Virus record (IMG/VR): IMGVR_UViG_3300029848_000008
DNA from: a virus
DNA length: 59,375 nt
Reading direction: 5' to 3' (one strand)
Shown here: piece by piece, positions 9,434 through 59,375 of the stretch
Numbering within the stretch: the stretch's first letter is position 1
How the letters are laid out: each line of letters begins with the position of its first letter
Made by a program: the position numbers and the translations under genes
The notes under the pieces: generated by a model
Told to the model about the DNA's origin: nothing
Databases searched by the model: none
Seen by the model: the letters and a program-made list of their open reading frames with translations, nothing else

Positions 9434-9453
9434 CTGTAGGTTATAGGAAAGAA

Positions 9454-10424: not shown

Positions 10425-10478
10425 TTCATTCCCCCTTTCATAAGAGATAAGAAAAAGCTCCCGCGGTGAAGCGGGAGC
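10416..10478. repeat. 63-nt junction repeat copy 2
   Basis: Matches 9371..9433 at 62 of 63 positions. Confidence 0.95.
10457..10478 (-). terminator. Rho-independent terminator (duplicate of 9412..9433)
   Basis: Same stem-loop and T-run. Confidence 0.8.
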
Positions 10479-10495
10479 TTATAAGTGAAAAGAAC

Positions 10496-32495: not shown

Positions 32496-32496
32496 C

Positions 32497-33057
32497 TCAG
32501 GCAACCTCCCTTCGTTTCATGGCCCGGATAATCTCGTCCGCCCGGACGATCCGCTCCATAATGGCGGAAATATCATTTGGATCGGGCTTGTCGTAAAGCA
32601 CCTCGTCGTTCTGATAGATGCGCAGCTCCATGGGAATATCCACGGGCTTGCGACGGTATTCCAGGCAGAAGAGCGCGGCGTAGATGCGCAGCTGCTCCAT
32701 GTGCGCCGGGACTGTTCCAGTCTTCAGATCATGGATGCGGAGAAAATCATTGCGAAAGCTGATGGCGTCCGCGGTGCCGAAGCAGTTTTCGGAATAATAT
32801 AAAACCTGCTCCGGCGTCATCTTGAATCCGATGGCGTCATTGACGTACATGTTCAGTGTCTTGGCGCTTTTCTGCAGCTTGATGCCGTGGCGGATAGCCT
32901 GTGCAGCGAAGGCATGAAGCTCCGTGCCCCGCTGCACCGCCAGAAAGTTCTGATAGCTTTCCGCCAGCTTGTCGTCTGTGTAGTTGATCCAGTGGTATTT
33001 GCTGGCTCCCAGAAAGGCGTGCTGCCCTTCAAGGTCCAAATGTCTGTTGAAGTCCAT
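32497..33057 (-). CDS. PD-(D/E)XK nuclease superfamily protein
   Basis: GTADAISFRNDFLRIHDLKTG (D...D-L-K). GAGGAGGAGG RBS. Confidence 0.6.
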   Translation of the reverse strand: MDFNRHLDLEGQHAFLGASKYHWINYTDDKLAESYQNFLAVQRGTELHAFAAQAIRHGIKLQKSAKTLNMYVNDAIGFKMTPEQVLYYSENCFGTADAISFRNDFLRIHDLKTGTVPAHMEQLRIYAALFCLEYRRKPVDIPMELRIYQNDEVLYDKPDPNDISAIMERIVRADEIIRAMKRREVA

Positions 33058-39633: not shown

Positions 39634-40095
39634 TCAGAAATCCTCCGAGGGGGCAACATATTCCGCGGCTATATATCCCTTAGCCGTCCGTACCCAGCCA
39701 TCCAGCGTACCCAAAATCTCCACCTCCGCGCCGGGCTTCAGCCATCCCACCCGTTTGCCATCAGGCGTTTCCCGAAGGGCCACCCGTCCGTCAGCGTCGA
39801 TCACACCCTGCTGGGGCTCATCCGTGGGAGGGGTCAGGCTTAGGTAGTCCAGGCAGCACCACAGGCTGTCCCCGGCCCAGACATTGGCCCAGCCGCCGTC
39901 AATGGCCAGCACCTCCACGCTGTCGCCATAGGCCAGAATGGTTTCTACCCTCGCCTTCCGGTTGGGCTCCCACCGGCAGTTCAGGCCGCTGGGGGCGGTG
40001 CAGTAGTAGGTTTCCGCATAAGCGGGGATGGCAGTCAGGCAGACCAGCAGAGAAAATATCCATAGAATGATTCGAATGCTTTTACTCGTTTTCAT
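39634..40095 (-). CDS. Secreted protein with two SH3b-like domains
   Basis: Signal peptide IILWIFSLLVCLTAIPAYA. Two W/G-rich SH3b-like halves (...GGWANVW..., ...LDGWVRTAKGYIAAEYV). Confidence 0.65.
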   Translation of the reverse strand: MKTSKSIRIILWIFSLLVCLTAIPAYAETYYCTAPSGLNCRWEPNRKARVETILAYGDSVEVLAIDGGWANVWAGDSLWCCLDYLSLTPPTDEPQQGVIDADGRVALRETPDGKRVGWLKPGAEVEILGTLDGWVRTAKGYIAAEYVAPSEDF

Positions 40096-40130
40096 ACTTC
40101 ACGGGGCTCCTTTTGCACTTTTTTCGTAAA

Positions 40131-40160
40131 CGAAAAGAGCTACTGTTTTTCAGCAGCTCT
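40131..40160 (-). terminator. Rho-independent terminator after 40172..40399
   Basis: Minus strand reads AGAGCTGCTG-aaaaa-CAGTAGCTCT followed by TTTT. Confidence 0.6.
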
Positions 40161-40171
40161 TCGTCACGGAT

Positions 40172-40399
40172 TCATCTGAAATTCATCGCCGAGTAATACG
40201 AGTAGGTAATACTGGGGTGTCGTTCTTCCGCGGGCATTTCCTCTTCCATTCGGATGGCGTGATGGGGATGTTCGGCTGCATAGTCCCGCATGTGAATATC
40301 AAAGATTTGTTTCACACTGCGGCCTCCTACAGCCAGAAATCCCATCGCCAACAGAATCAGGCAGAGACGCGCCAGAAGCTTTTCCCGTTTTTCCGTCAT
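40172..40399 (-). CDS. Small single-TM protein
   Basis: 75 aa. TM segment LCLILLAMGFLAVGG. Confidence 0.55.
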   Translation of the reverse strand: MTEKREKLLARLCLILLAMGFLAVGGRSVKQIFDIHMRDYAAEHPHHAIRMEEEMPAEERHPSITYSYYSAMNFR

Positions 40400-40404
40400 G
40401 TTTG

Positions 40405-40764
40405 TCAGCCCTTTCTTTTTTCAGGTTTCTCCGAAAAAGGGGCTGCTGATTTCGCGGACGCGATACGGATGAAATATCCCGTGGGTCCGGTGGGGGAAAC
40501 CACGTACTCCGCCCGTACAACCTGCCGTGCCAAAATGAAGCGGTTCAGGCACCGGGCCGCGATAGGCTTCCCCTTGGGCAGACCATCCAGCTCAATCACC
40601 AGCGTATCAGGGTCAGTGATTTCCAGAAGGAAGCACGCTTTTTTCTCCCGGATGGGAAGCTGCTTCAGCAGCTCGCCAAGAGACAGAAACGCAGGCATGG
40701 AGAAGACCCAGCGGGCGTCTCCGTTAGCATATTTTTCCGCCAGATGGGCTCTGAGCATGGTCAT
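40405..40764 (-). CDS. Hypothetical protein
   Basis: Start at MTMLRAHL with an ATGA overlap onto the upstream stop. Confidence 0.5.
   Translation of the reverse strand: MTMLRAHLAEKYANGDARWVFSMPAFLSLGELLKQLPIREKKACFLLEITDPDTLVIELDGLPKGKPIAARCLNRFILARQVVRAEYVVSPTGPTGYFIRIASAKSAAPFSEKPEKRKG
40430..40457 (-). promoter_or_regulatory. Early-region motif, degenerate copy
   Basis: Minus strand reads CCGCGAAATCAGCAGCCCCTTTTTCGGA. Shares CAGCCCCTTT with copy 1. Lies inside the 3' end of 40405..40764. Confidence 0.3.
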
Positions 40765-40997
40765 CCCTTCTTTCCCAATTTCTGCCGCCGCCATTTTTTG
40801 CGGGAATACTGCAGGATGAGTGGGCTTGTCATCCAGCCGTCCCGGGCCGCCTGGGCCCGCCGGTAACGCTCCTGCTTTTCCGCCTCCCGATACTGCCACC
40901 CGGCACATCCAGTCCGGCAGCTGAGACTTCGTTCCCTGCAGCCCTGACAGGTTTGGAAGGAGATAGGCAGCTCATCCGTTGAGATGGTCCGGCTCAT
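40761..40997 (-). CDS. Small Cys-rich basic protein
   Basis: Start at MSRTIS with an ATGA overlap onto the helicase stop. CQGCRERSLSCRTGCAGW. Confidence 0.5.
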   Translation of the reverse strand: MSRTISTDELPISFQTCQGCRERSLSCRTGCAGWQYREAEKQERYRRAQAARDGWMTSPLILQYSRKKWRRQKLGKKG

Positions 40998-42217
40998 GTC
41001 GATGGCCATTTGACCCACTTCCTTTCATTGAATTGTTTCTTCTGGCTCAAGGCCCTGGCAATGGCCAGATCAATGCCCGCCCGGCTTTTGAAGTGGTAGT
41101 AATACAGATCCGTATAGGGGGTATTCAGCCGGTCAATACGTCCGGCAGCCTGTGCCATCACCTTGTAGGAGTAGTTCTGTGAATAGAACACCGTGGTATC
41201 GGTTGTGATGCAGTTCCAGCCCTCGCAGCCAGCGGTATACTGTACCAGATACACCCAGCTTTTGCCCTTTGGCACCGGCTGATGGGCGTGGCCATTCCAC
41301 TGGGCCACCTCCGTGCCTGGAGCGTAGGCAAGATTTCTTAAAATATCCAGCTCGTAGTCAAAGTTGTAGAAGATGATGGCTCGTGGGTGTTTCTCCAGCA
41401 GAGCAAGCAGACGAAGCTGACGGCTTTCATCCTCATTGACCACCCGTCGCAGGTTGTAGCACAGCTCACTGGCATTCTTCACTGGCTCTCCGGTCCAGGG
41501 GTTCCACCGGTCTCGGAAAAGGCCTTTGTAGCGCAGAATATCATAGTCCGCGTATATGTCCTCGTGGTGAGCTACCGTTTCCCGGTGGAAGTCCATGGTG
41601 ACCAGAATTTCATTCCGGAGCCGGAGCAGCTTGCCGGTGTTCAGATACCGGTCGATCTGGGGGAAGGGCGTGCGGGGATTATAGACCACGTGCTCCCGCA
41701 GGAAGGCTGTGCGGTTCTTATAGAAGCCGTTGGCTAGAAACACAGGAATATAATCGCTCCAGGTGTCCCCCGGAGTGGCAGACAGCAGGATCCACTGGTT
41801 GACCTTGGCGATTTTCAGAAAGGCCTTTACCCAGCTGCCGCTGCCCACCACCCGCTGCTCGTCAAAAAGAAAAAACGCGCCGGTAACGGCTGCGTATTTT
41901 GGAATATTGTTCCAGCTGTCCACCACCACCCGGACGCCGTAGGGGTTCTCGTCAGGTTTAATGGACAGGCCGAAGGGGGCCAGCTCCGCCTCCCATTCCA
42001 GCGTGTCACGCTTCCGGGCCGTGGTGATTATGTACAGGTCGCGGGGGTTTTGCATGCGCACGTAGTTTTCCGGCCCCAGCACGCCGCCCTGCTGGAGGTA
42101 GTAGTAGCCAAGGGCGGTACGGCTTTTGCCGCTGCCCACGCCGCCGCACAGGATGCACCCGTTGCGCATTTTCCGCACGGCCTCCATCTGGTACGGGTAC
42201 AGGGAGACGCCCGCCAT
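40994..42217 (-). CDS. SF2 (SNF2/DEAD-like) helicase
   Basis: LYPYQ, GGVGSGKS (Walker A), FLFDEQ (motif II), LLSATPG (motif III), QAAGRIDR (motif VI). Confidence 0.8.
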   Translation of the reverse strand: MAGVSLYPYQMEAVRKMRNGCILCGGVGSGKSRTALGYYYLQQGGVLGPENYVRMQNPRDLYIITTARKRDTLEWEAELAPFGLSIKPDENPYGVRVVVDSWNNIPKYAAVTGAFFLFDEQRVVGSGSWVKAFLKIAKVNQWILLSATPGDTWSDYIPVFLANGFYKNRTAFLREHVVYNPRTPFPQIDRYLNTGKLLRLRNEILVTMDFHRETVAHHEDIYADYDILRYKGLFRDRWNPWTGEPVKNASELCYNLRRVVNEDESRQLRLLALLEKHPRAIIFYNFDYELDILRNLAYAPGTEVAQWNGHAHQPVPKGKSWVYLVQYTAGCEGWNCITTDTTVFYSQNYSYKVMAQAAGRIDRLNTPYTDLYYYHFKSRAGIDLAIARALSQKKQFNERKWVKWPST

Positions 42218-42219
42218 GG

Positions 42220-42879
42220 TCAGTGCCCTTCCTCGTCCAGACGGCGATGGGCCTCCCGCTTTGCCTGCATTTCATCCATATGCAGGCGTACAAAACGTTC
42301 CCACTCCTGACGCTTGTACTCCTGCTCCAGGCGGCGCTTCTCCGCCCTTGCCTTCTTCTCTTCCTCCCGAAGCCGCCGGGCACGGGCGTTCTTCCGTTCC
42401 TCGTCCGCCTGGTCTACCGCGTGGGAGAGCGCCGTGGTGCTGCCGAAGCAGCGCTTGGCATAGGCAATGCAGAAGGCCGCGAAGGTGCCGCAGTCCTGCT
42501 TGCCCTCCTCCAGCACCACGTGGGTCTTGCTGCCGTCCGTCCACCACACCACGGTGGTGCGGCCCCGGCGGGCGATGTGCTTGGGAATGATGGTGTTGTC
42601 CACGATGAATCCGTCGCCGCTATCAGAAGTGTACTCCTTGGGGATGTATCCATGGGCACCCTTGATATGTGGCGCGTAGGCCCGACTGCCCGGCTGAAGA
42701 TCACCGGTGCTGGTGGTCGTAGCACACGAGCAGGTGAAAATATCGTTCAGGTTATTGGATGTGATCGTGTCACGGGTAGTGATGTCTGCATTCATAATGG
42801 TTTGGACTCCTTCCTTTTCGAGCTGTTCCTGTTGTCTTCTCATGAAATATCCATCCAGAGGGTTGCACCATTTAGACAT
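42220..42879 (-). CDS. Hypothetical protein with a basic coiled-coil tail
   Basis: 219-aa ORF. TTVVWWTDGSKTHVVLEEGKQDCGTFAAFCIAYAKRCFG. Confidence 0.5.
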   Translation of the reverse strand: MSKWCNPLDGYFMRRQQEQLEKEGVQTIMNADITTRDTITSNNLNDIFTCSCATTTSTGDLQPGSRAYAPHIKGAHGYIPKEYTSDSGDGFIVDNTIIPKHIARRGRTTVVWWTDGSKTHVVLEEGKQDCGTFAAFCIAYAKRCFGSTTALSHAVDQADEERKNARARRLREEEKKARAEKRRLEQEYKRQEWERFVRLHMDEMQAKREAHRRLDEEGH

Positions 42880-43426
42880 ATTTCCAACTCCAATACTCGT
42901 TTTCTCCGATGAATTTCAGCACGATGTTGTAAATGGCCTCCGGTGGGAAAATATCACTGAGTAATACAAGGTCCGGCTGCACCAGCGCCTTCATGGCGGG
43001 GGAGAAACGCTCCCGATCTTCCTGGATGCGGCGCAGGGCTTGTTGCTCATCGTCCCCCCGGGCCAACATCCGTCCCTTGGCGGCTCTTTCCGAAATATCC
43101 AGCCAAATGATGCGCAGCTTCTTTTTGCAGCGCTGCCGCAAGGTCAATAGTCCCGCCGGGTCGATGACATACAGGTCGCAGCGAGAAAGCTCCTCAAAGG
43201 TAACGCCATAGTGGTAACCATCGTATTTGGTGTAGGCTGCCAGATTATGCCGCTGATCCTGAAACCATTTTTCATCCGTAAAAATGTGCCCAGGCTCGTT
43301 TGGATACCGGGGCGGACGAGTGGTGCGGCTGACCACCGGGGTCATGCGGCGCTTCATGGTCAGCTGAGCGGCCAGTGTGCTCTTGCCGCTGCCGCTGGGG
43401 CCGACAATGCAATATAAACACCTCAT
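42872..43426 (-). CDS. Guanylate-kinase-like P-loop nucleotide kinase
   Basis: GPSGSGKSTL, then SRTTRPPRYPNEPGHIF. Confidence 0.7.
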   Translation of the reverse strand: MRCLYCIVGPSGSGKSTLAAQLTMKRRMTPVVSRTTRPPRYPNEPGHIFTDEKWFQDQRHNLAAYTKYDGYHYGVTFEELSRCDLYVIDPAGLLTLRQRCKKKLRIIWLDISERAAKGRMLARGDDEQQALRRIQEDRERFSPAMKALVQPDLVLLSDIFPPEAIYNIVLKFIGENEYWSWKYV

Positions 43427-43905
43427 CAGAAGGGCTCCTCTCCGGGGTACTCCATGGCTGCATACTTCTCCGCGAATTCGTCCTCTTCAAGGGTGGCATA
43501 CATCGTCTTCAGGTATGCCTTCACGCCGGTCTTTCCGTTGACCTCCCACTGATAGGGGCGGATGACTACGTCAACAATGCACAGCTCCGCGTAGTCCAGC
43601 GTGGAAATGGTGTCCTCGGTCAGCTCGGTCATGACTTTGCGGGTCACCATGTAAATTTTCGGAGGAATATGGTCAAAGCTGACGGCCACCTGCAGGTAAT
43701 GGCGGGGCGCTTCGTCCTCATCCCGAGGCGCCAGCACGCGGATGTTCCACCCGTCCTCAGACAGTTGCTGGGCCATAGCCGGGTCCTCGATGACCACGCA
43801 GAAGTTGCGGCAGCCCTTGCGGTTGTACTTGGTTTCATTGCCCGCAAAGTTGCGGAACAGGATCCGGGCGTCTGCGATGGAGATGTTGGGAATACGCTTT
43901 TCCAT
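43426..43905 (-). CDS. Putative ssDNA-binding protein
   Basis: 159 aa. The acidic C-terminus ends in Phe (EYPGEEPF), as in SSB/gp2.5-type tails. Replication-module position. The fold was not verified. Confidence 0.4.
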
Positions 43906-44007
43906 GAGATTCAGTCTCCTTTCTTATTCAGAAACACATTTTTTGCATAAAGAAAAGAGGGACCGCTTTTCAGCAGCTCCTCTTTTTTGACAGGGGAAAA
44001 TGGGTGT

Positions 44008-44277
44008 TCAGTTATGAACCGGCGTACTCTGATGATACAGCCAGTCCGGGTCCACGTCCAGCTGTTTGTTCCAGACCACGGTGTTGTAATCCACGTGGGC
44101 CGTCTCAAACAAAGCCGGATCGTTGGCCAGCTCCCGATAACATGGAAGGCCAAACAGCTCCTTCCTCGCGTTGAAATCCCGAATTTCTCCGTTCCGGAAG
44201 CGTACCCGCAGGGTTCCGTCTCTGGCGCTGAGCACTTCCGCCGCCCTCGGCGTCTTCAGCGGTATTGCGTTTCTCAT
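44008..44277 (-). CDS. DUF2442 domain protein
   Basis: LRVRFRNGEIRDFNARKELF...YNTVVWNKQLDVDPDWLY fits the DUF2442 pattern. Confidence 0.65.
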   Translation of the reverse strand: MRNAIPLKTPRAAEVLSARDGTLRVRFRNGEIRDFNARKELFGLPCYRELANDPALFETAHVDYNTVVWNKQLDVDPDWLYHQSTPVHN

Positions 44278-44298
44278 TCTGTCAGCCTCCCGTTTTTC

Positions 44299-44574
44299 TT
44301 ATTTCCTCTTTTTCAGAGGATCAATCTGAATCAGTTCCCGATGGATGAGGGTCAAATACCAGTTTGCAGCCAATTCATTGTAATGAATCAGCGCCCATTT
44401 GCGGACCAGGCGGGCCTGTCTTCCCGGAAGATAACCTTCCATGATTTCTCCGTTCAGTGTGACCACTGCCTCGTTGCTTCCATACAGCACATGAAAATGG
44501 GGCGTATGATGTCGCTCGCCTTTTTCGTAGTGCATCATGATTACAATCCCATTGAATTCCGATACCACAGGCAT
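44299..44574 (-). CDS. DUF4160 domain protein
   Basis: Start at MPVVSEFNGIVIMMHYEKGERHHTPHFHVLYG behind an AAGGAGGG RBS. Classic DUF4160 N-terminus. Confidence 0.7.
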   Translation of the reverse strand: MPVVSEFNGIVIMMHYEKGERHHTPHFHVLYGSNEAVVTLNGEIMEGYLPGRQARLVRKWALIHYNELAANWYLTLIHRELIQIDPLKKRK

Positions 44575-44590
44575 ATCCCGTGCCCTCCTT

Positions 44591-44619
44591 AGTATAGAAA
44601 ATCCCATTTTCCCTGTCAA
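44591..44619 (-). promoter_or_regulatory. Near-consensus sigma70 promoter driving DUF4160/DUF2442
   Basis: Minus strand reads TTGACA (44619-14), 17-nt spacer, TATACT (44596-91). Confidence 0.7.
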
Positions 44620-44622
44620 GTC

Positions 44623-44639
44623 GGTGCGCAAAGCGCACC
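44623..44639. promoter_or_regulatory. 17-bp perfect palindrome GGTGCGCAAAGCGCACC (operator-like), copy 1
   Basis: Abuts the -35 of the minus-strand promoter. Same element at 44738 and 48962. Confidence 0.6.
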
Positions 44640-44690
44640 CTCCGTAAAACGCATGGTTTTTCACGCGGCATTCGGCGGCTAAACGGGGCG

Positions 44691-44719
44691 TTGACGGTTC
44701 CTCCTTTCTTTGATAGAAT
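44691..44719 (+). promoter_or_regulatory. Near-consensus sigma70 promoter on the plus strand (divergent from 44591..44619)
   Basis: TTGACG (44691-96), 17-nt spacer, TG-a-TAGAAT (44711-19). Confidence 0.7.
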
Positions 44720-44737
44720 CTTGAGCACCATCCCATC

Positions 44738-44754
44738 GGTGCACAAAGCGCACC
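44738..44754. promoter_or_regulatory. Palindrome copy 2 (GGTGCACAAAGCGCACC)
   Basis: One mismatch. Lies ~15-20 nt downstream of the predicted plus-strand start site. Confidence 0.6.
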
Positions 44755-44804
44755 CTCCATAAAAGCGTCCGCCCCCCAGCAGCCGCTTTCTGAAATCAGG
44801 TGCA

Positions 44805-44993
44805 ATGAAAGGAAAAAGCGGAATGAACGAAACGCAACTTTCCAATGTTCAAGTAGGCAAGTCAACGCCCTGGTTAGCCGCCGGTGCCATGATCGCAATC
44901 ACCGGATTGCTGGGATTTGCAATCGCTAAGGATGATCGGTTCCGATTGCGTTACCAGGGTTTCGAATGCACAATAGAGCCTGCTACGCTGTAA
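44805..44993 (+). CDS. Small plus-strand single-TM ORF converging on the polymerase gene
   Basis: 56-62 aa (ATG at 44805 or 44823). TM segment PWLAAGAMIAITGLLGFAIA. Weak RBS. Overlaps the polymerase stop by 11 nt. Confidence 0.4.
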   Translation: MKGKSGMNETQLSNVQVGKSTPWLAAGAMIAITGLLGFAIAKDDRFRLRYQGFECTIEPATL

Positions 44994-47900
44994 ACCCTTC
45001 AAAGTCGCCGTACTGGCTGATGGTCTGCACGGCGTCGTCCGCCAGCTTGCGGTAGTAGCTGCAGTCGATGTCCGCCTCCTTGCCCAGGCCTCGCACCATT
45101 TCCGATTCCAGCCAGCGGTAGCCCTTGCTGCCCGTGGCGGCGGAATACTTGCCGTCCTTTTCCCGCAGCAGCAGGCCTCCGCCCTTGCCGGGAAGGATGG
45201 GACAGAACTGACCTACCTTGCCCACAAAGCGGTAATGGTGCTCATCCTCCGGCAGGTCCTCGTTCATATCCAGGTATAAGCTGCTGGTAACGGACTTGGT
45301 TTCGCACAGGTCTTCGAAGGCGATTTCTTCCCGGCTGAACAGAGTCTTGAATACGTAGGGCACGGCAAACTGGGCCCCGGTGGCCGTCCATTGGCCGCCA
45401 TGTTTGGCGCAGTCCTTGGGAGAATATCCATAGGCGTTCTGGCACCAGTCCGCGTCCGCATATTTGGCAATGTATACAGCATCGTTCACCAAGCACATGC
45501 GTCCATATGTGGCCTCATGCTCGAAATTGTAGCCATAGCGCTTGCCGTACTCCATCACAAGGGCAATGATCTCCGGCGTCGCATTGGGAATCTTGATAGA
45601 GTCTGTCTTGATGTGAGCCACGGTAAAGCCCTGCTCCTGTACAACGCGCTTTAAGTTAATCATGAACAACGCGCCCCGCTTGGCCACAATGTTGTCCTTG
45701 TTTCGGATGTCCCTAAAGGGATTGTCGAACTTGGCACTTGTCAGGCCGTACACCGAGTTGATGGCGATTTTCAGTGCACCCGCCAGATCGTCCGCCGCGT
45801 TTTCGTCCGTCAGGTACTTGGCCAGCGCACCGCCCAGCATTTTCCTGGCCCGGTCGAAGTCCCGGTGCTTGATGGCAATGCGCGCGTCCAGAATTTCCTT
45901 GAACCGGGCGGTGTACTCTGGGCCGAACAGTTCCTCTGCTACGATGCTAGATGGGTGCATGCTGGCAATATCCAGAAGAGCCACGTCCGTATACATGCCA
46001 GGCTCGGCGTATACGTAGCCGCCTTCGCCAACCTCTTCGCCACGGTAGGTACTTTTACCGTTTTCGTATCGGTAGCCGGGGAACACAGGGCGGTTGTGAA
46101 TATCAAAGCGGGTGTGATCGTCCACCTTGCCGGTGAAGAACACGCTGTCCACCAGCACGGTGCAGTCGTCGTTGTCGTGCACTTCGCCCATGTCCCGGTA
46201 GGAAAAGGCACTTTGGGGGGTGCGATTCTTGCCGAAGATGATGCGGGTGGTCAGGCTGTTGGTGGTATCATTCACGGTCATGCCCGCCACGTCCGCCAGA
46301 ATCTGACGAGCGGTGAAGTCCGCTCTCAGATGGTTGAAGACCTTCTCGGTAGCGATGACGTCATTATCACAGTATTCTGCTACCTTGCTCCACTGGTCCT
46401 CAGGCACAGGCTGATCCCAGGGAAGGCCCAGTTCCTGATGGTGAATACCCAGCTCGATCTCCCATTTTTTCAGGCTCTGCTTTTTCTTGCTGAAGTCGTA
46501 CACATCCGTATAGCTCACGTTATACGCCTCTCCGAAGAAGCAGTTGGCGCTGCCCGTGACGATGCGGTTGGACAGAGTGTACAGCCGGGCGTTATCATAG
46601 CCCATCAGGCAGGCGTAGAGCATGTGGTTGTCGTACCGGCGGCAGTTAAAGCCCACCAGCCGGAACTTCATCAGGGCCTCGATTTCCGCGGGCTTGGGGT
46701 TTATCATGCGCACCACGGGCTTGCTCTCGCCCTGTTTTTTCCAGTTGACCAGAAACAGGTTGGGGAAGACCTCCACATCGTAGAACACCAGCTCACTGCC
46801 GTCGTTCACGGATGGGTCGGAGATCTCGTCGCTTTTGAACTTCATTTTGTTTACCAGCTTCAGGCAGGCATCCGCCTGATGGGTGCTGCTGGCGGCGAAG
46901 GCCAGAATGCCGTTGCGCATGTCGGTCACATCGTAGTGCAGGCCGCTTGCGTAGGCGTCTTCCAGAATTTTGTAGATGAAGTCCACGCTGGGCTTGGTGG
47001 CGGGGTGAATTTCCTTGTTCAGGTTTCGGAGGATCAGCGTCCGAAGCCCTTTTTCACTTTTGACAGTATCAAAGTTGACCATTTTCTCTCCTTTCAGGGG
47101 CAGACCCGAGGAAATCGTGCTGACGGGCAGCTGGTTGCAACGGCTCAGCCTGCGCCGTAGGCTGCTGCTGCCGGTGAATACCTTCACCTCGATATGGTCC
47201 TCGTACACCCGGCTCAGCCGGGAGGGGTCGCCAGAATAAAGATAATGCAGGTGAATACCCGCCCCACCCTTGCTGACTTCCGCGTAGGTGGGCGGCCACT
47301 TGCTTGCCTCCTGCCGGTTTTTCTCAAAGCATTTGTTTCCGTTTTCGTCCGTCAGGTCGAAGTCAATCACAATATGATTTTCCGGCACTCGCACATAGTG
47401 CAGACGGCGGGTGTCCAGCTCCTTGAGGGTGGTGGTCACGTCCGTCCACTTCTTCTGGGGCGTTTCCCGCTCGCTGGCGTACTGGGCCGGGCAGTCCGCG
47501 CAAAGCTTGTCCAGAATGGACTCGCCCTCCTCCAGTTGAAGCCAGCTCTTCGTACTGGCAGGCGGCGGTTCCGACTCTGATTCCTCGAAAATATCCGTGC
47601 GGAAGCCCGTATACCGGCTGCGCACCCGGGCGCCGTCCTCCTGCTGCCACCGGTCCCGGTATTCCCGAAAGTAGTTCTTCAGCTCTTCCTTAAACACACG
47701 CTGGCTCATGGGATAACCCACCTTGGCCTCGTCGCAGTAGGTCTTATACATCTCCCATGCGGCCTTCAGGGTGGTGCCATCCTCCTTAAGGAACACTGGG
47801 TAGCTGTCCAGCATGTAGTTATAGAAGTCGTTGCTGGCCCCCATCATGGCCGTGGGAATATAATGATCGTATCGGCCCGGGTCGCTGCGATAGAAGGCTA

Positions 47901-48891
47901 GGCATCGGCTGGCAATGGCCCCCAGCTCAAAGCTGACCTGCTTCATCACTTGCTTGTACTCTGCAGCGGGCAGCTTGTCACCGGAGGGTGAAATATCAAT
48001 CAAACGGCGGATGAGGCCGCTCTTGCCGTCGGTGATGCGCACAGGCTTGTTGGTGCCCATGAACAGGAAGCACTTGAAGCGGTTGGCGTAGGTGGACTTG
48101 AACTTTTCGTTCACGGTCATCAGCTCGTGGCTGACCAGTGAGTTCAGGCGGGTGTTGTCCTCGATCCGGCTCAGGTCGCCGTCGTGCTGAATGGCTACCA
48201 GCGGGTTGGACTTGAAGGCCTCCAGCGCAAAGCTGTTACTGGAGGAGCCCAGCGCCTTGGCGTCAAACACCGATGTATACCCCTCGAACAGCTGGCCGAT
48301 CACATTCAGGATGGTGGATTTACCCGTTCCAGCCGCACCATAGAGCACCGCGAACTTCTGCAGCTTCCGACTATCGCCGCTGACCACGCTGCCAATGGCC
48401 CATTCGATCTTCGCCCGCTCCTCGGGAGAATATAACGTGCCCGTCAGCCGGTCCCAGGCGTCAGTGGGCCCCTCCTCAAGCGGATAGGGCAGCTTTTTGG
48501 AGGCGTAGTCCTTCTTTACGGTGACCGTGTTCTGGAAGATTAGCTTCTCGTCCAGCATGTGGAAGCTGTCACGCATGTCCTTCTGGCAATACTGGTGCCA
48601 GACGGAGATCATGCGGCTTTCCGCGTCCCACATGTGCATCACTTTCACGTGGCCCTCCAGCCGTTCCTGGTTTTCGTCCGCATAGCGGTCCAGCTCCCGG
48701 TCAATCAGCTGCAGCGCGTCCTGTTCGTCGGTGGACCACAGACCCCGTTCCTCCAGCCAGACGGCGTAAAAGTCGCCGCCACGAATCATCAGGTCGGCGC
48801 TTTTCTTAATGATGAATTTTGGATAGATTTCGATGACGCCCCTCTTCGTGGGGCGGGTCGCAATGGTGACAAAGTCGAGCATGGTGTTCAT
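44983..48891 (-). CDS. Helicase (P4/D5-type P-loop) - AEP primase - family B DNA polymerase fusion protein
   Basis: VLYGAAGTGKST. HIVIDFDLTD plus GGAGIHLHY. Exo motifs FYDVEV, GFNCRRYDNHML, YCDNDV. Pol motifs LLDIASMHPS, KIAINSVYG, HIKTDS. The ATG at 48882 has the better RBS spacing. Confidence 0.8.
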   Translation of the reverse strand: MNTMLDFVTIATRPTKRGVIEIYPKFIIKKSADLMIRGGDFYAVWLEERGLWSTDEQDALQLIDRELDRYADENQERLEGHVKVMHMWDAESRMISVWHQYCQKDMRDSFHMLDEKLIFQNTVTVKKDYASKKLPYPLEEGPTDAWDRLTGTLYSPEERAKIEWAIGSVVSGDSRKLQKFAVLYGAAGTGKSTILNVIGQLFEGYTSVFDAKALGSSSNSFALEAFKSNPLVAIQHDGDLSRIEDNTRLNSLVSHELMTVNEKFKSTYANRFKCFLFMGTNKPVRITDGKSGLIRRLIDISPSGDKLPAAEYKQVMKQVSFELGAIASRCLAFYRSDPGRYDHYIPTAMMGASNDFYNYMLDSYPVFLKEDGTTLKAAWEMYKTYCDEAKVGYPMSQRVFKEELKNYFREYRDRWQQEDGARVRSRYTGFRTDIFEESESEPPPASTKSWLQLEEGESILDKLCADCPAQYASERETPQKKWTDVTTTLKELDTRRLHYVRVPENHIVIDFDLTDENGNKCFEKNRQEASKWPPTYAEVSKGGAGIHLHYLYSGDPSRLSRVYEDHIEVKVFTGSSSLRRRLSRCNQLPVSTISSGLPLKGEKMVNFDTVKSEKGLRTLILRNLNKEIHPATKPSVDFIYKILEDAYASGLHYDVTDMRNGILAFAASSTHQADACLKLVNKMKFKSDEISDPSVNDGSELVFYDVEVFPNLFLVNWKKQGESKPVVRMINPKPAEIEALMKFRLVGFNCRRYDNHMLYACLMGYDNARLYTLSNRIVTGSANCFFGEAYNVSYTDVYDFSKKKQSLKKWEIELGIHHQELGLPWDQPVPEDQWSKVAEYCDNDVIATEKVFNHLRADFTARQILADVAGMTVNDTTNSLTTRIIFGKNRTPQSAFSYRDMGEVHDNDDCTVLVDSVFFTGKVDDHTRFDIHNRPVFPGYRYENGKSTYRGEEVGEGGYVYAEPGMYTDVALLDIASMHPSSIVAEELFGPEYTARFKEILDARIAIKHRDFDRARKMLGGALAKYLTDENAADDLAGALKIAINSVYGLTSAKFDNPFRDIRNKDNIVAKRGALFMINLKRVVQEQGFTVAHIKTDSIKIPNATPEIIALVMEYGKRYGYNFEHEATYGRMCLVNDAVYIAKYADADWCQNAYGYSPKDCAKHGGQWTATGAQFAVPYVFKTLFSREEIAFEDLCETKSVTSSLYLDMNEDLPEDEHHYRFVGKVGQFCPILPGKGGGLLLREKDGKYSAATGSKGYRWLESEMVRGLGKEADIDCSYYRKLADDAVQTISQYGDFEGFTA

Positions 48892-48899
48892 CCTTCATG

Positions 48900-48985
48900 T
48901 CGGCCCGCATTTCATTGCGGGCTTCGGACTGCGGTACCGTTTCACGGTGTCCTCGTCCTCGGTGCGCTTTGCGCACCCTCCGTTT
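48900..48985 (-). repeat. Structured leader repeat copy A (upstream of the polymerase gene); includes palindrome copy 3 at 48962..48978
   Basis: gcggtaccgtttcacggtgtcctcgtcctcggt + GGTGCGCTTTGCGCACC + ctccgt. Homologous to 49259..49310. Confidence 0.8.
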
Positions 48986-49005
48986 CGGCCCGCATTTCAT
49001 TGCAT

Positions 49006-49245
49006 TCATTCTTCATTGGTTGCAGAATTCGTTCCGCCTCCTTCGGGCTGAGTGGTGTCCGTCTGCCGCTCATTGAGCAGATGCACCACAGCGCAACTCA
49101 GGACGCCCACGCCGAAGCACAACAGGCGGTTTATCTTTTTCTGGCGACGGAGCCGTTTTTCCATATCCCGCATCAGGGTTTCGGAGCGCTCCAGCGCCCG
49201 GTAGACCCAGTTCATCATTTCATCCATATTTTTCTCTCCCTTCAT
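49006..49245 (-). CDS. Small single-TM protein
   Basis: AGGAAGG RBS. TM segment LLCFGVGVLSCAVVHLL. Confidence 0.6.
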   Translation of the reverse strand: MKGEKNMDEMMNWVYRALERSETLMRDMEKRLRRQKKINRLLCFGVGVLSCAVVHLLNERQTDTTQPEGGGTNSATNEE

Positions 49246-49258
49246 TGTCGACCTTCCT

Positions 49259-49310
49259 ATCGGCCCGCGGTACCGCTTCGCGGTGTCCTCGTCCTCGGTT
49301 CACCCTCCGT
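49259..49310 (-). repeat. Structured leader repeat copy B (palindrome half deleted)
   Basis: tcggcccgcggtaccgcttcgcggtgtcctcgtcctcggttcaccctccgt. Confidence 0.8.
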
Positions 49311-49854
49311 ATCTCCCGGAAAGGTAATGACAGAGTTGGTACCAGATCTCAATTTTTCTCAGGTCCAGCGGGCAGCCGGGAATCCAGAATAGGCCCCCAT
49401 GCCCGTCGGCGGAATAATGCCGGTGCAGAAACCGGCGGATGGTTTTTTCCGCCCTCCGCCGGTCAAAGTATTCGTCGGTCATGTCCGCCAGGCCCAGATT
49501 GACCACCATCTCCCAAAACCACTGGCCGGTGCGGTCGCCGTACTGGGGGTCGGTCATCAGGTGCTCCTCCACCCGCAGGGCGAGGGCCGCCATCATTTCC
49601 AGCACGGTGCAGGGCGCGCCGTCCAGAAAGGTCTCCACATAGCGGTAGTCATAGCCCATCTCGCAGCCAAAACGGTAGCGGAGCTCGATTCCGTCTCTGG
49701 CGCGGTTCTCGTCCATCTCCACGGTCCAGGTAAACTCCTGTTCCGCAAGGCAGCCGAGGAGCTCCTGATAGGATCGAAACCCCGTAAATTTCCCGTTCTG
49801 AACGAGCTGGCACAGCCAGCGGAAATACCGCTTCTTCAGCTCGTTCTTGCTCAT
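49300..49854 (-). CDS. Conserved hypothetical phage protein
   Basis: 184 aa. DENRARDGIELRYRF...TVLEMMAALALRVEEH...GGLFWIPG...IEIWYQL. Confidence 0.55.
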   Translation of the reverse strand: MSKNELKKRYFRWLCQLVQNGKFTGFRSYQELLGCLAEQEFTWTVEMDENRARDGIELRYRFGCEMGYDYRYVETFLDGAPCTVLEMMAALALRVEEHLMTDPQYGDRTGQWFWEMVVNLGLADMTDEYFDRRRAEKTIRRFLHRHYSADGHGGLFWIPGCPLDLRKIEIWYQLCHYLSGRYGG

Positions 49855-50445
49855 TTAGTCCACCTCGTGCGGCTTACGGGTACGGATGGAGGCGTAGGTG
49901 CGCTCGTCCCGTAGAATTTCGTAATCGTGGCACAGGCGGTCGTTGCGCACGTAAACGCTGTCGTCCTCATACTCGCCGAAGTGGTCCGCAAAATCCACGG
50001 GCACGATGTCGGAGATGTCATCCACCTCCTCGTTGTTGTCGTCCGTCAACACCCCGTCGGCGTAGTAGGTTAAGCTGACCGGGTCATAGTCGTATTGGCT
50101 GCCGAATTCCTCGGGGGTGATAATATAAGGCGTTTCACCGTGGTTCTTCATAGCTTCCTCCATGGGGACAGTTTCTTCCTCCGGCTTCTGAGCCGGGGGA
50201 TCAAAGTGCTTGGCATAGCCGGCCTTGACCACCGTTTTGGCGTACTCTTTCAGGGCCGGCTTGTTCTGGGCCAGGGTTCGGACGTCCTTCTTCCGCTCCT
50301 CCAGCATGGCCCGGAAGGCTTCCCGGGCTGAGGCAATTTCCTCTTCCTTTTCCCGCTGATAGCGGCTCTTGGCAACGGTCCATCCGGCAAAAGTGCCTGC
50401 CACCGCGCCAAGACCGAAAATGCCTAAACTCATCCAGATTTTCAT
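49855..50445 (-). CDS. N-terminally membrane-anchored acidic protein
   Basis: TM segment LGIFGLGAVAGTFAGWTV. 196 aa. Confidence 0.55.
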   Translation of the reverse strand: MKIWMSLGIFGLGAVAGTFAGWTVAKSRYQREKEEEIASAREAFRAMLEERKKDVRTLAQNKPALKEYAKTVVKAGYAKHFDPPAQKPEEETVPMEEAMKNHGETPYIITPEEFGSQYDYDPVSLTYYADGVLTDDNNEEVDDISDIVPVDFADHFGEYEDDSVYVRNDRLCHDYEILRDERTYASIRTRKPHEVD

Positions 50446-50466
50446 AAAAACATCACGCTCTCCTTG

Positions 50467-51402
50467 TCAGATTTTGTCATAAATCACGCCGTCTACGTTG
50501 AAGTCCAGCGCTGTGACCTCCTCCATTTCGCCGTAGGCATTGCGGCGCAGCACCTTTGTCATGCCGAAATCTACCACGCTGTCGCCATCGTGGGCAGGGT
50601 TGTTGGGGTCGTAGATCCAGCCGACCACTGCGCCTGCGGGGGTGTGGTCGTAGCCCAGGCTCTCATATACATCGTTCAGGAACAGGTGACCCTGGGCCTT
50701 CAGTCGATTGTTCGCCCAGGTCTGCTGGGACCGCAGAAAGAAGTCGTTCATATCCTGATCCTCATCCCAGGCTCGGCTGTCCTCCCGGCGAAACAGACGT
50801 CCGTATTCGTTGCGGAAGTCCTGCTCACTGACCGTCACAGTTTCCTTCACCTTTTTCGCATGGCCCTTCTCATCCACCACGGTCTTTTCCACCTTTTCGG
50901 TGCGGATGCCGTAGCGCAGCTCCTTGTCCACGTCTGCACCATAGCGCTCAGTCACCCGGCCGCGGTATTCCCGGAAGCCCTTGTCCACCGCCGCGTAGGC
51001 CGCCGTCAGGGCCACCGCCCGCCTCTGGAGGAGCGTGTTGCTGCCCACCATGCCTGCAATGGACAGTCCACCCAGCAACGCGGCGGGAGCGTACAGGCGG
51101 CATACCTTCAGTCCGGCCTGCAGGTAGAGGATCACCTTATCATGAGCCGCGTCCTTCTTGGTATAATCCTTGCCATGGACGTTCTTGCCCTCCTCCTGGC
51201 AGCGGCGCAGCGTAGCCAGATCGTTTCGGGTGCTTTCCAGGGTGTCATTCAGGCGCAGAGTAGCCCGGCAGGCAAGCACCGTGCTGCCAACGGCCCCGGC
51301 GATGCCACCTGCCATCAGGATCTGCGGAGCATGCTTCTTCAGGGGAGCAAAGAGTTTCGTTATCGCCATTCCGGCGTTTTTCGTCATCTTGGAAAGCTTC
51401 AT
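50467..51402 (-). CDS. 2-TM membrane protein, paralogue 1 of 3
   Basis: Shared motifs LLQRRAVALTAAYAAVDKGFREYRGRVTERYG and FLNDVYESLGYDHTPAGAVVGW. Confidence 0.65.
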   Translation of the reverse strand: MKLSKMTKNAGMAITKLFAPLKKHAPQILMAGGIAGAVGSTVLACRATLRLNDTLESTRNDLATLRRCQEEGKNVHGKDYTKKDAAHDKVILYLQAGLKVCRLYAPAALLGGLSIAGMVGSNTLLQRRAVALTAAYAAVDKGFREYRGRVTERYGADVDKELRYGIRTEKVEKTVVDEKGHAKKVKETVTVSEQDFRNEYGRLFRREDSRAWDEDQDMNDFFLRSQQTWANNRLKAQGHLFLNDVYESLGYDHTPAGAVVGWIYDPNNPAHDGDSVVDFGMTKVLRRNAYGEMEEVTALDFNVDGVIYDKI

Positions 51403-51421
51403 TTTTGTATCTCCTTTTTTC

Positions 51422-52021
51422 TCAGTCTAAAGGCATAACCTTGGGCAATTTAAGCATGTAGCCGGTGGGCACGCGGACCACCTTGGCACTGGCAATGTTC
51501 GTCCAGCCGTAGCGGTTGTCCGTATAGCTGCCGTTGATCCCCACCAGATCGTACAGGTCGGCCACGCTGACCAACCCATAATTGGCAATAAGATCGTCCA
51601 TCTGCTGGAGCACGGTTTCTGCCTCGCCCCGGCTGTCCACCACTATGTCATCAAAGGCGTAACCGGTGCGGGCGATGGTCTGGCACGGGCGGCTTCTGGT
51701 TTCCGGCTCGTAATAGGCCCGGTAGTTCACCCGGGACGCGCCACTGGTCGTGGAGCCTGCCGTCCGGCCCTTGCCGAATACCATGTCCGCCACGGAGGTA
51801 ATCATGTCATGCAGGCCCCGGCGGATGCTGGGCACCAGAATATCCCAGATGAGGTAATCCTTTACATCGCCCGCGTCCTCAGACACAAAAATATCAGCGA
51901 ACCGGCGCAGTTCGCTTTTCTTCTGCACGCTGGCCGACCCGCTGATGACCTTTTCCACTTTCTTTTCTTCCTGCATGGCCGCCTCCCGGCTTTTATGGGA
52001 GTTGGAACGGTAATTTTCCAT
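51422..52021 (-). CDS. Conserved hypothetical protein
   Basis: 199 aa. GGAGGAAA RBS. C-terminus VSVADLYDLVGINGSYTDNRYGW. Confidence 0.55.
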   Translation of the reverse strand: MENYRSNSHKSREAAMQEEKKVEKVISGSASVQKKSELRRFADIFVSEDAGDVKDYLIWDILVPSIRRGLHDMITSVADMVFGKGRTAGSTTSGASRVNYRAYYEPETRSRPCQTIARTGYAFDDIVVDSRGEAETVLQQMDDLIANYGLVSVADLYDLVGINGSYTDNRYGWTNIASAKVVRVPTGYMLKLPKVMPLD

Positions 52022-52240: not shown

Positions 52241-52999
52241 TCAGCGCTGATAGCCGTACTTGGGGGCCACAGCGTAGTCCAGCACCAAACATGGTGTGCC
52301 GTCCGCCGTCAGCTGGGCGTCAAAGCATAGCTCGATCAGGCCTCGATCCGTACACCAGCCCAGACTGTCCCCGACCCCGATGGACGGCAGACCCAGCTCG
52401 TAGTAAAAGTCGTTGAGGGAAATATACATTTCGCTGAGCATGCGGCGGTTCAACTCATTGACCGTCTGCCGCATTTTCTCGATGTCGGATTTGAAATACC
52501 GTCCGGACAGCACGTCATAGCACAGGGTGGAACCCTTGTCCGTCAGAATGACCTCCCGGCTTTCCACTGGGTTTTTGCTCAGCTTATCCCTGGCGACGGC
52601 GTCGTCCACGGCTTCAGCCTTCTTCGGTCCCACCGTTTCCGTCACCTTCTCCCGGTAGTCCTTCAGGGCGGATTCAGACAGGGCGTAGGCTGTGGCCAAA
52701 GCCGCGTTGCGCCGCTGGTTCTCCCCGTGGGCGGCGATCAGGCACACAGTGGAGCCAACGCTCAGCGCCGCCGAGGGTAGGTAACACTTCCATACCGTTT
52801 TCACGGTCTCAAGCGGGGGCAGCTTCTCCACCTCCAGCTCATCCTTTCGCTGCTCCATCAGACGCAGGGCCTTAGGAGTCTTCCACACGGCCAGCCCCAT
52901 AGCGGCGAACATACCGCCGATGCCAAGCCCTGTCAGAATTTCCGGGCTATGCTTGGCAAGGCCCACTTTCAGATGTTTTCCCCATTGGGAAAAGTTCAT
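52241..52999 (-). CDS. 2-TM membrane protein, paralogue 2 of 3
   Basis: ENQRRNAALATAYALSESALKDYREKVTETVG and SLNDFYYELGLPSIGVGDSLGW. Confidence 0.65.
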   Translation of the reverse strand: MNFSQWGKHLKVGLAKHSPEILTGLGIGGMFAAMGLAVWKTPKALRLMEQRKDELEVEKLPPLETVKTVWKCYLPSAALSVGSTVCLIAAHGENQRRNAALATAYALSESALKDYREKVTETVGPKKAEAVDDAVARDKLSKNPVESREVILTDKGSTLCYDVLSGRYFKSDIEKMRQTVNELNRRMLSEMYISLNDFYYELGLPSIGVGDSLGWCTDRGLIELCFDAQLTADGTPCLVLDYAVAPKYGYQR

Positions 53000-53609: not shown

Positions 53610-54353
53610 TCAGTAATCCAGATAATCCGCCGTGGGGCCGAATGGCAGCTCGATAAAGCAGCACTCCAGCCCGTCGTCCGTATGGGTGACGAAGTGAGAA
53701 AAATCAATCCACTGGTAACCGTAGAAGGCCTCGCCAGCGCCCACGGACCAGCCGGACCGGTCGCCGCCATCCGGCTTGGGCAGCCCCAGCAGCTCCGCCA
53801 GGTCGTTCAGGCAGCAGATTCCGGTGAGGGCATACTGCCGATTCAGGCGGTACTCCGCGTCCAGCACCTCCAGCAGAGGACGGCGGAAATATCCGAAGTG
53901 CTTTTCGTAAAACAGTTCGGGCTCCGTTTCGCAGGCGGGCGGGTCTTCCCACGGGGGACGGACCTCTGCTCGAATGGCCTGCTCGGTCTTCACACCTACC
54001 TTGGCGGCAGTTTTAGCCCGATACTCCCGAAAGGTACGATCCATAAGCAGATAGGCGCTGGCAAGGGCCGCCTGCTGGCGCTTGTCCAGCATCCGAGCGC
54101 CGAAAATACAGCCGACGGTTCCCAACCCCATCAGCCCGGCGGGGAGATAAACCGCCGCCGTTTTGGAAGCTTTTCGCCAAAAATCCCACCGGGAATTTTC
54201 TGACTCTTCACCGCGGCGAATGATCTCGTCCGCCTGACGGGACGCCTTCACCGCCAGCACTGCCGTGCCGCCAACGCCTGCCGCCGCTAGCACAGATAGG
54301 GCTGTTGGAGCCCAGCGCCTGAGAGTTCGTTCAATGGTCTTCATCCAGGGCAT
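53610..54353 (-). CDS. 2-TM membrane protein, paralogue 3 of 3
   Basis: LDKRQQAALASAYLLMDRTFREYRAKTAAKVG and CLNDLAELLGLPKPDGGDRSGW. Confidence 0.65.
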   Translation of the reverse strand: MPWMKTIERTLRRWAPTALSVLAAAGVGGTAVLAVKASRQADEIIRRGEESENSRWDFWRKASKTAAVYLPAGLMGLGTVGCIFGARMLDKRQQAALASAYLLMDRTFREYRAKTAAKVGVKTEQAIRAEVRPPWEDPPACETEPELFYEKHFGYFRRPLLEVLDAEYRLNRQYALTGICCLNDLAELLGLPKPDGGDRSGWSVGAGEAFYGYQWIDFSHFVTHTDDGLECCFIELPFGPTADYLDY

Positions 54354-59351: not shown

Positions 59352-59375
59352 ATGGTAAAACAAAAACTCCCTCGC
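59277..59375. repeat. Terminal direct repeat copy 2 (= 1..99)
   Basis: Identical 99 nt read directly at both window ends. Confidence 0.97.

Follow-up and report, generated by a model that had tools for sequence, protein, structure and literature searches.

The window, that is, the whole stretch of viral DNA analysed here (59,375 nucleotides, nt; IMG/VR record IMGVR_UViG_3300029848_000008), carries on its minus strand an open reading frame (ORF) whose product is very probably the enzyme with which an uncultured, temperate, siphovirus-like phage replicates its DNA. The enzyme, hereafter the replicase, is read as a single chain in which a helicase, a primase of the archaeo-eukaryotic primase (AEP) type and a DNA polymerase of family B (PolB) follow one another as in GP55 of Lactococcus phage 1706, and its mechanism is assigned by homology. 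This reading is carried by the arrangement of the domains, by the folds found for helicase and primase, by the conservation of the catalytic residues and by the collinearity with GP55. An earlier note on this DNA had proposed the same order of helicase, AEP primase and exonuclease-proficient PolB in one chain of 1302 amino acids (aa). The order was recovered by profile searches, by structure prediction with fold comparison and in the published biochemistry of GP55, and the nine motifs quoted in the note were all located at their positions in the translation (Table 1). The inventory of three modules was right, but it had overlooked a domain of four helices that separates primase from polymerase and without which GP55 does not prime.

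Domain architecture of the replicase

Across the whole chain, PHROG 4210 (profile length 1304) was matched at aa 5-1300 (E=0, 2031 bits). The first 437 residues are supported, by their motifs and by the predicted structure, as a D5-type superfamily 3 (SF3) helicase module in which Walker A (G185-T193, with K191), Walker B (D237/D239), the sensor-1 Asn (N281) and an arginine finger (R295/R296) were all found. Pfam DUF5906 matched aa 183-295 above threshold (2e-13), NCBIfam TIGR01613 (phage/plasmid primase, P4 family, C-terminal domain) matched aa 170-397 (9e-14), and the best PDB sequence match of the module, obtained with the family profile, was the SaPI5 primase-helicase 7OLA (4.9e-8). An AlphaFold2 model of aa 1-450 (predicted local distance difference test, pLDDT, 89; predicted template modelling score, pTM, 0.85) was aligned with 7OLA over 414 columns at a template modelling (TM) score of 0.60. 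On fold comparison, the same model also matched PrimPol of African swine fever virus (ASFV), monkeypox E5, vaccinia D5 and the C-terminal region of NrS-1.

The two ends of the helicase module were less readily assigned. For aa 1-160, no separate Pfam or PHROG family was matched in the profile searches. A separate origin-binding or novel domain was considered for this part and was rejected as the leading reading, since the aa 1-450 model as a whole can be fitted onto the helicase part of SaPI5 Pri-Rep, with 414 columns aligned. Because this model matches D5-type helicases, aa 1-160 are best read as the pre-ATPase part of such a helicase and not as an extra activity; judging from the extent of the alignment, they are probably a collar or D5N-type region preceding the ATPase. 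At the other end, aa 345-435 are tentatively Pox_D5-like and possibly a winged-helix domain, Pfam Pox_D5 giving a weak match to aa 355-417 below threshold (E 0.027). The linker that follows (aa 438-455) was variable in length and sequence across the homologue alignment.

The central primase domain was resolved by fold comparison alone, as the sequence evidence for it is weak. Pfam Prim-Pol covered the motif I-II segment in 10/10 diverse homologues at sub-threshold scores (best 0.0019), which are no proof by themselves, and several PHROG primase families matched the domain with their N-terminal parts. Searches of the PDB with 10- and 36-sequence profiles of the central domain returned spurious matches only (a lactococcin immunity protein and a mannanase). 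A model of aa 455-695, built with AlphaFold2 on 36 diverse sequences, reached a pLDDT of 92.7. Its top 10 Foldseek matches in the PDB were all primase-polymerases (prim-pols), namely NrS-1 N300 and pRN1 ORF904 (E 1.2e-5 to 3e-4, probability at least 0.99), and the next match was far weaker (E 0.08). An AEP prim-pol fold is supported by this model for aa 456-600. Motif I reads D510-F-D512 and motif II S540..G543xG545xH547; they are followed by E568 and then by R579/R580. From its position and invariance, E568 is the putative acidic residue of AEP motif III.

Behind the AEP domain, the same model contains four helices (aa 613-624, 632-648, 656-667 and 673-682). They agree with the alpha-helix domain (alpha-HD) of GP55, which is described as two helix pairs behind the AEP domain that are homologous to neither PriL nor helix-bundle domains, which is new and essential and in which mutation of Y655 and F667 abolishes priming (PMC12205980). 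Profile searches of the PDB with the alpha-HD found neither a relative nor a primase accessory domain. When the central domain was compared with 1.84 billion representatives, 470 clusters were obtained. Because nearly all of these place the domain mid-chain, at about residues 450-700 of proteins of 1250-1450 aa, it is essentially confined to the helicase-primase-PolB fusion.

The remainder of the chain (aa 697-1302) is supported as an exonuclease-proficient PolB, with all Exo I/II/III and Pol A/B/C motifs present and invariant. The exonuclease motifs are Exo I (D705/E707), Exo II (N749..Y753-D754) and Exo III (Y840..D844), and the polymerase motifs are A (D974..S977-M-H979-P), B (K1041..N1045..Y1048-G1049) and C (K1095-T-D1097-S). 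The PolB-only family PHROG 1252 matched aa 689-1292 (6.5e-47), the NCBIfam Pol II family matched the module (1.9e-7), and a search of the PDB with the family profile returned E. coli Pol II (5.8e-7) together with archaeal PolB and Pol alpha. Two insertions in this module, at about 46089-46205 (aa 896-935) and about 45397-45459 (aa 1145-1165, containing two Cys), are shared by the window replicase and some gut-phage relatives and are missing from the 1706 and actinophage homologues in the alignment. Some other relatives carry a further insertion of about 40 aa near aa 1215.

Table 1. Positions of the replicase, its parts and motifs, and other genes of the window
Feature	Position	Strand	Basis or remark
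Whole replicase ORF	44983..48891	minus	uninterrupted, 1302 aa including Met1; stop codon 44983-44985
N-terminal beta-rich and helical part of helicase module, aa 1-160	48412..48891	minus	AlphaFold2 model, superposition on 7OLA
SF3 (D5/P4-type) P-loop ATPase core, aa 165-340	47872..48399	minus	DUF5906, TIGR01613 and 7OLA matches
C-terminal helical and small beta domain of helicase module, aa 345-435	47587..47859	minus	superposed on D5-type helicases
Helicase-primase linker, acidic, rich in Pro and flexible, aa 438-455	47527..47580	minus	pLDDT <50 for aa 438-450
AEP (PriS-like or prim-pol) catalytic domain, aa 456-600	47092..47526	minus	AlphaFold2 model and Foldseek
Alpha-HD, four helices, aa 605-685	46837..47079	minus	aa 455-695 model; Y653 and F665 key
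PolB 3'-5' exonuclease subdomain, aa 700-860	46312..46794	minus	invariant motifs, PHROG 1252
PolB polymerase subdomains, aa 935-1302	44986..46089	minus	profile matches, Pol A/B/C motifs
Motif VLYGAAGTGKST	replicase aa 182-193		located in translation
Motif HIVIDFDLTD	replicase aa 506-515		located in translation
Motif GGAGIHLHY	replicase aa 542-550		located in translation
Motif FYDVEV	replicase aa 703-708		located in translation
Motif GFNCRRYDNHML	replicase aa 747-758		located in translation
Motif YCDNDV	replicase aa 840-845		located in translation
Motif DIASMHPS	replicase aa 974-981		located in translation
Motif KIAINSVYG	replicase aa 1041-1049		located in translation
Motif KTDS	replicase aa 1095-1098		located in translation
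900-aa ORF	29802-32504	minus	sigma-70 region-4-type and LuxR-type helix-turn-helix at ends, weak central RNA-dependent RNA polymerase (RdRP; PF05183), PHROG 4291 RNA-dependent RNA polymerase
Second helicase, superfamily 2 (SF2)	40994-42217	minus	PHROG 62; FP_oengus has a similarly placed SF2 helicase
Guanylate-kinase-like P-loop kinase	42872-43426	minus	downstream of replicase, one strand
Phage single-stranded-DNA-binding protein (SSB), 159 aa, ends ...EYPGEEPF	43426..43905	minus	Pfam PF24083 1.6e-54; PHROG 4787 1.1e-64
DUF2442 protein	44008-44277	minus	Pfam; between SSB and replicase
ORF between DUF2442 gene and replicase	44299-44898	minus	listed TTG start probably too far upstream
Three paralogous DUF6353/PHROG 2152 genes, function unknown	50467-51402, 52241-52999, 53610-54353	minus	upstream of replicase
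Tyrosine-integrase-like gene	58104-59351	plus	opposite strand to replicase

Relation to GP55 and other known systems

The replicase is an ordinary member of the known GP55-like (HelPrimPolB) four-in-one family, and its architecture is not new. The novelty implied by the earlier note for a helicase-primase-PolB chain is therefore withdrawn, as the fusion is abundant and has been described, named and enzymatically characterised in 2016, 2020 and 2025, respectively. Kazlauskas et al. 2016 (PMC4889955) recognised that GP55 fuses helicase, AEP and PolB, and counted it among two known three-way fusions. The polymerase group was named HelPrimPolB by Kazlauskas et al. 2020 (PMC7544198). They assigned it, as a divergent member, to the EpsilonN-like clade of RNA/DNA-primed PolBs, noted that its motif C is divergent and called the group prevalent in metagenomes. 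Zhang et al. (Nucleic Acids Research 2025, PMC12205980) reported that purified GP55 has DNA polymerase and 3'-5' exonuclease activity, that its helicase activity is UTP/dTTP-dependent and confers strand displacement, and that it makes RNA primers, for which GTP is the preferred first nucleotide and 5'-CCAAC-3' an example of a start site. In the same study, GP55 replicated single-stranded M13 DNA de novo, primer hand-off worked in trans, and the protein was a dimer in solution by size-exclusion chromatography with multi-angle light scattering (SEC-MALS). The placement of the helicase N-terminal to the primase is unusual, as had been claimed, since the primase comes first in 94% of primase-helicase fusions (PMC4889955).

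In each of 252 cultured-phage records, one locus accounted for at least 80% of the query, and further homologues were found in more than 8000 metagenomic clusters. The exact window replicase is already present in public metagenomes, without a name. Identity was 61.7% over 100% of the query for Faecalibacterium phage FP_oengus, 47-54% for Gordonia, Arthrobacter, Streptomyces, Curtobacterium and Rhodococcus phages, and 37-41% for Lactococcus phages 1706, P092 and P118. GP55 itself gave 40.6% identity over 94% of the query in tblastn, and its MAFFT alignment with the window replicase was collinear, with no gaps at the domain junctions.

The two proteins share their length class (1317 aa in GP55, 1299-1302 aa here), the order of SF3 helicase, PriS-like AEP, alpha-HD and PolB with exonuclease, S-x-H-P in motif A and KTDS in motif C. 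They differ in sequence, being about 41% identical overall, with about 33% in the helicase, 60% in the AEP, 40% in the alpha-HD and 48% in PolB. They also differ in host lineage (Lactococcus, as against a gut Clostridia-type phage for the window replicase) and in an insertion of about 50 aa near the C-terminus of the 1706 protein.

Full-length orthologues at 47-62% identity are the FP_oengus helicase/polymerase (AUV56521.1) and the DNA primase/polymerase genes of actinophages (Gordonia, Arthrobacter, Streptomyces and Rhodococcus ReqiPepy6, gp072). Their surroundings resemble the replication module of the window in that genes for a PF24083 SSB and an SF2 helicase lie close by, and they belong to the same phage lineage, which also carries a YonO/RdRP-like RNA polymerase. 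Unlike GP55, these orthologues have no biochemical characterisation, and their annotations name just two activities. In the GenBank record of ReqiPepy6 (GU580941.1), a primase-C-terminal domain and PolB are already noted.

More distant systems share single modules. The classical AEP-SF3 fusions (NrS-1 primase-polymerase, poxvirus D5/E5, ASFV C962R (PrimPol), SaPI5 Pri-Rep and pRN1 ORF904) provide the best structural matches to the AEP and D5-type SF3 folds, but their primase is N-terminal to the helicase, they lack PolB, and they have a helix-bundle or PriL-like accessory domain in place of the alpha-HD. In NrS-1 and ORF904, moreover, the AEP site itself serves as the DNA polymerase. The only other helicase-primase-polymerase single chain in PMC4889955 is Pas55 of Actinoplanes phage phiAsp2 (SF3 helicase, DnaG primase and PolA). 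Compared by description only, it appears as a convergent solution, with a DnaG/TOPRIM primase and a PolA polymerase. The nearest non-fused relatives of the PolB part, at 22-25% identity, are the standalone PolBs of Pseudomonas Ab26-like, Nonagvirus (9g/JenK1) and Listeria P35 phages. Their motif C likewise lacks the first Asp (NTDG). They are unlike the window replicase in being about 660 aa long, in being encoded beside a sliding-clamp-like processivity factor and in keeping the canonical steric-gate Tyr, at a position where His is invariant throughout the fused family.

As a discovery, the window replicase has little weight, since the architecture, the evolutionary placement and the four activities are already published. 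The gain lies in annotation: the window replicase and its many metagenomic relatives, labelled just as DUF5906 domain-containing, hypothetical or even EcfA2, can be named with confidence as helicase-primase-PolB replicases. A large group of temperate phages and prophages of gut Clostridia (Lachnospiraceae, Ruminococcus, Oscillospiraceae and Christensenellaceae) relies on the GP55-type replicase for replication. Moreover, divergent members such as the window replicase are natural variants for the use of GP55-like enzymes in primer-free isothermal amplification.

Catalytic sites, mechanism and alternative readings

Conservation was determined from an alignment of 108 full-length, divergent representatives of clusters at 50% identity. 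Residues K191, N281, R296, D510, D512, H547, E568, D705, E707, Y753, D754, D844, D974, K1041, N1045, Y1048 and D1097 were 100% conserved, as was the S540..H547 motif of the AEP domain, and over the four catalytic sites (helicase, primase, exonuclease and polymerase) as a whole, conservation was 98-100%. This degree of conservation argues that all four catalytic sites of the replicase are under selection. Since the key residues are invariant, the motifs quoted in the earlier note are not chance matches. In GP55, K189A abolished helicase activity, D509A primase activity, mutation of D712/E714 exonuclease activity and D949A polymerase activity (PMC12205980). Together with the two alpha-HD residues, seven GP55 residues whose mutation abolished an activity were aligned with the window replicase, and all were identical (K189 to K191, D509 to D512, D712/E714 to D705/E707, D949 to D974, Y655 to Y653 and F667 to F665).

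These data bear on the possibility that one module is a catalytically dead relic, with the AEP only tethering DNA or the helicase serving only for oligomerisation. The sub-threshold Pfam score of the AEP domain would fit such a relic, as would the finding that GP55 still carries out de novo synthesis after deletion of its helicase domain (PMC12205980). However, the active-site residues of both suspect modules (D510, D512, H547 and E568; K191, N281 and R296) are among the invariant ones, and the residues whose loss inactivates primase or helicase in GP55 are present in the window replicase. A dead module is thus regarded as improbable.

By analogy with GP55, the source of the activities, nucleotide preferences, primer site specificity and oligomeric state ascribed here to the window replicase, the N-terminal D5-type SF3 helicase would unwind the duplex and provide strand displacement, driven by UTP or dTTP if GP55 is a guide. 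The AEP and alpha-HD would make short RNA primers de novo on single-stranded DNA, with a GTP start at loosely specified sites such as 5'-CCAAC-3' in the case of GP55. The C-terminal PolB would then extend these primers with deoxynucleotides and proofread with its own 3'-5' exonuclease, and primer hand-off may occur in trans between the subunits of an oligomer. The two strands of the window contain 39 and 81 copies of the pentamer 5'-CCAAC-3', against about 57 and 66 expected, which is uninformative.

The primase would need another role if the PolB part were protein-primed or primer-independent (piPolB) and started synthesis itself. The authors of the GP55 study aligned its motifs with phi29 polymerase, and strand displacement by GP55 resembles that by phi29 (PMC12205980). 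Even so, this reading is highly improbable: a PDB search with the family profile retrieves chains of Pol II, archaeal PolBs and Pol alpha and none of the phi29 type at E ≤ 0.01, and HelPrimPolB falls among RNA/DNA-primed PolBs, in the EpsilonN-like clade (PMC7544198). In addition, primase-dead GP55 mutants show no de novo synthesis, and strand displacement by GP55 needs the helicase domain (PMC12205980).

The continuity of the frame, by which the GP55-like replicase is distinguished from an artefact of assembly, was assessed from homologues. Full-length, collinear homology without gaps at any domain junction was found in hundreds of independent genomes, which supports the continuous frame; of the more than 8000 metagenomic clusters, the 120 best-scoring were full length and collinear, as were most of 136 genome loci, and a protein identical to the window replicase was found on 4 independent contigs. 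An artefact of assembly or sequencing, or a recent pseudo-fusion of separate helicase-primase and PolB genes, might be supposed from two relatives whose annotation is fragmented: in Streptomyces phage Bing the match is split in two across 6.7 kb, and in Siphovirus contig89 several coding sequences (CDSs) lie under the match. This possibility has next to no likelihood given the homologues described above, the 252 phage records, the 1302 open codons and the purification of GP55 as one chain (PMC12205980). In Bing (NC_042106.1, 36238-42938), three hypothetical CDSs lie between the two matching pieces, and the split could be an intein, intron or homing-endonuclease insertion in the replicase gene.

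The start codon probably lies three codons inside the longest frame. A GAAGGA Shine-Dalgarno sequence directly adjoins the first ATG (48891) and lies 9-10 nt upstream of the second (48882, Met4; span 48882-48897). Of the listed near-identical and cluster proteins, most are called with 1299 aa and two with 1302 aa, and the database protein identical to the window replicase is called as 1299 aa. Because the Shine-Dalgarno spacing fits ATG 48882 and the database relatives are called at this length, the true product is probably 1299 aa and starts at Met4.

Four points weigh against the replicase being a GP55-like enzyme throughout. First, the working assembly is in question, as hexamers are formed by every structural neighbour of the helicase module but GP55 is dimeric in solution. 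Second, the helicase module is only about 30-33% identical to that of GP55, so nucleotide preference and oligomeric state may differ. Third, the frame is known from assembled sequence and a sequencing-level frameshift is conceivable, although the conservation makes one very unlikely. Fourth, PolB has two non-canonical motifs, a His at the steric gate and KTDS for DTDS. This last concern is mostly removed, because GP55 has both features and is an active, efficient polymerase; the changes are therefore no sign of inactivity.

In motif A, His979 (45955-45957) occupies the position at which PolBs normally carry the steric-gate Tyr (that of SLYPS), according to the alignment with E. coli Pol II. 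The fused family reads S-M/L-H-P, with His in 108/108 representatives, and the standalone relatives Ab26 and JenK1 retain Tyr. Motif C, likewise aligned with E. coli Pol II, is KTDS (Lys1095 for the first Asp of DTD, 45607-45609), conserved at 98-100%, where Ab26/JenK1-type relatives have NTDG and DTDS is canonical; this is in line with the divergent motif C described for the HelPrimPolB group (PMC7544198). The His of motif A, a feature apparent from sequence comparison, is the one point that goes beyond PMC12205980, PMC7544198 and PMC4889955, in which the change is not discussed. It is conceivable, though rather unlikely, that the changes from Tyr to His and from DTDS to KTDS retune the active site for work beside an RNA primase, with the adjacent PF24083 SSB and its C-terminal ...PF tip as dedicated third component of a minimal two-protein replisome. 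If so, the retuning could consist, for example, of altered ribonucleotide discrimination or a better take-over of very short RNA primers in cis or trans.

Neighbouring genes and the phage genome

The SSB encoded at 43426..43905 is labelled as a single strand annealing protein in PHROGs. Acidic and aromatic C-terminal tips are found in T7 gp2.5 and E. coli SSB and are the basis of the analogy by which the window SSB, as the earlier note had suggested, is a plausible partner of the replicase. A PF24083 SSB is also encoded near the replicase gene in FP_oengus (ending ...APEVPF) and Gordonia phage Tanis (ending ...AIES), the C-terminal ...PF being common to the window and FP_oengus proteins and not to the Tanis homologue. 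In phage 1706, no PF24083 SSB was found up to 3 kb away from the replicase gene in either direction, and the GP55 paper makes no mention of an SSB (PMC12205980).

Other genes of the replication region are listed in Table 1. The three DUF6353 genes are interleaved with other conserved genes of unknown function (PHROGs 4678, 4695 and 4079). The C-terminal half of the ORF at 44299-44898 (…HHTPHFHVLYG…) presumably resembles DUF4160.

An exact 99-nt direct repeat occupies the two ends of the window (1-99 = 59277-59375) and suggests that the phage genome is complete at about 59,276 bp, either as a circularly closed assembly or with terminal redundancy. Because the end repeat is accompanied by terminase and integrase genes, the window is read as a complete temperate genome assembled as a circle, and the phage is probably temperate since a tyrosine-integrase-like gene is present. 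No tRNA genes were found in the window. The phage is related to Faecalibacterium phage FP_oengus. Megablast of 40000-52000 against cultured phages gave no match, so there is no close cultured relative at the DNA level.

The host was not pinned down by a scan of genome collections, in which the best species-representative matches were at most 73% identical. Relatives of the replicase at 66-68% identity lie inside large isolate contigs, namely a 3.5-Mb scaffold of Hungatella hathewayi and contigs of Blautia faecis and Enterocloster lavalensis, which suggests that they are prophages. Labels of Bacteroidota and Kiritimatiellae on metagenome-assembled genomes with phage-sized contigs of about 57 kb are probably binning artefacts.

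Among cultured phages, the 900-aa RdRP-like ORF is distributed over the genera just like the replicase (Arthrobacter 95, Gordonia 55, Streptomyces 54, Lactococcus 13 and others), and it has already been described as a YonO/RdRP-like signature gene of this phage group (preprint 10.1101/842583).

Several repeats were also observed. A 59-nt direct repeat with 78% identity is found at 48924-48982, just upstream of the replicase start, and at 49260-49318, just upstream of the ORF at 49006-49245; it contains the GC-rich palindrome GGTGCGCAAAGCGCACC and may be a regulatory or terminator element. Six copies of about 43 nt (core TTCATAA...GCTG-T(6-7)-CGCGGA; starts at 33376, 34715, 40427, 53569, 54791 and 55122) are scattered through the early and replication region and could be a promoter or terminator-type repeat of the phage. 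Between structural or lysis-region genes, a 79-nt repeat with 91% identity (9371-9449 and 10416-10494) contains the hairpin GCTCCCGCGGTGAAGCGGGAGC followed by a stretch resembling a ribosome-binding site. Finally, eight copies of a repeat with a 21-nt period lie at 5981-6382 within a 477-aa ORF (5126-6559, minus strand), and this period therefore yields a protein segment with a periodicity of 7 residues.

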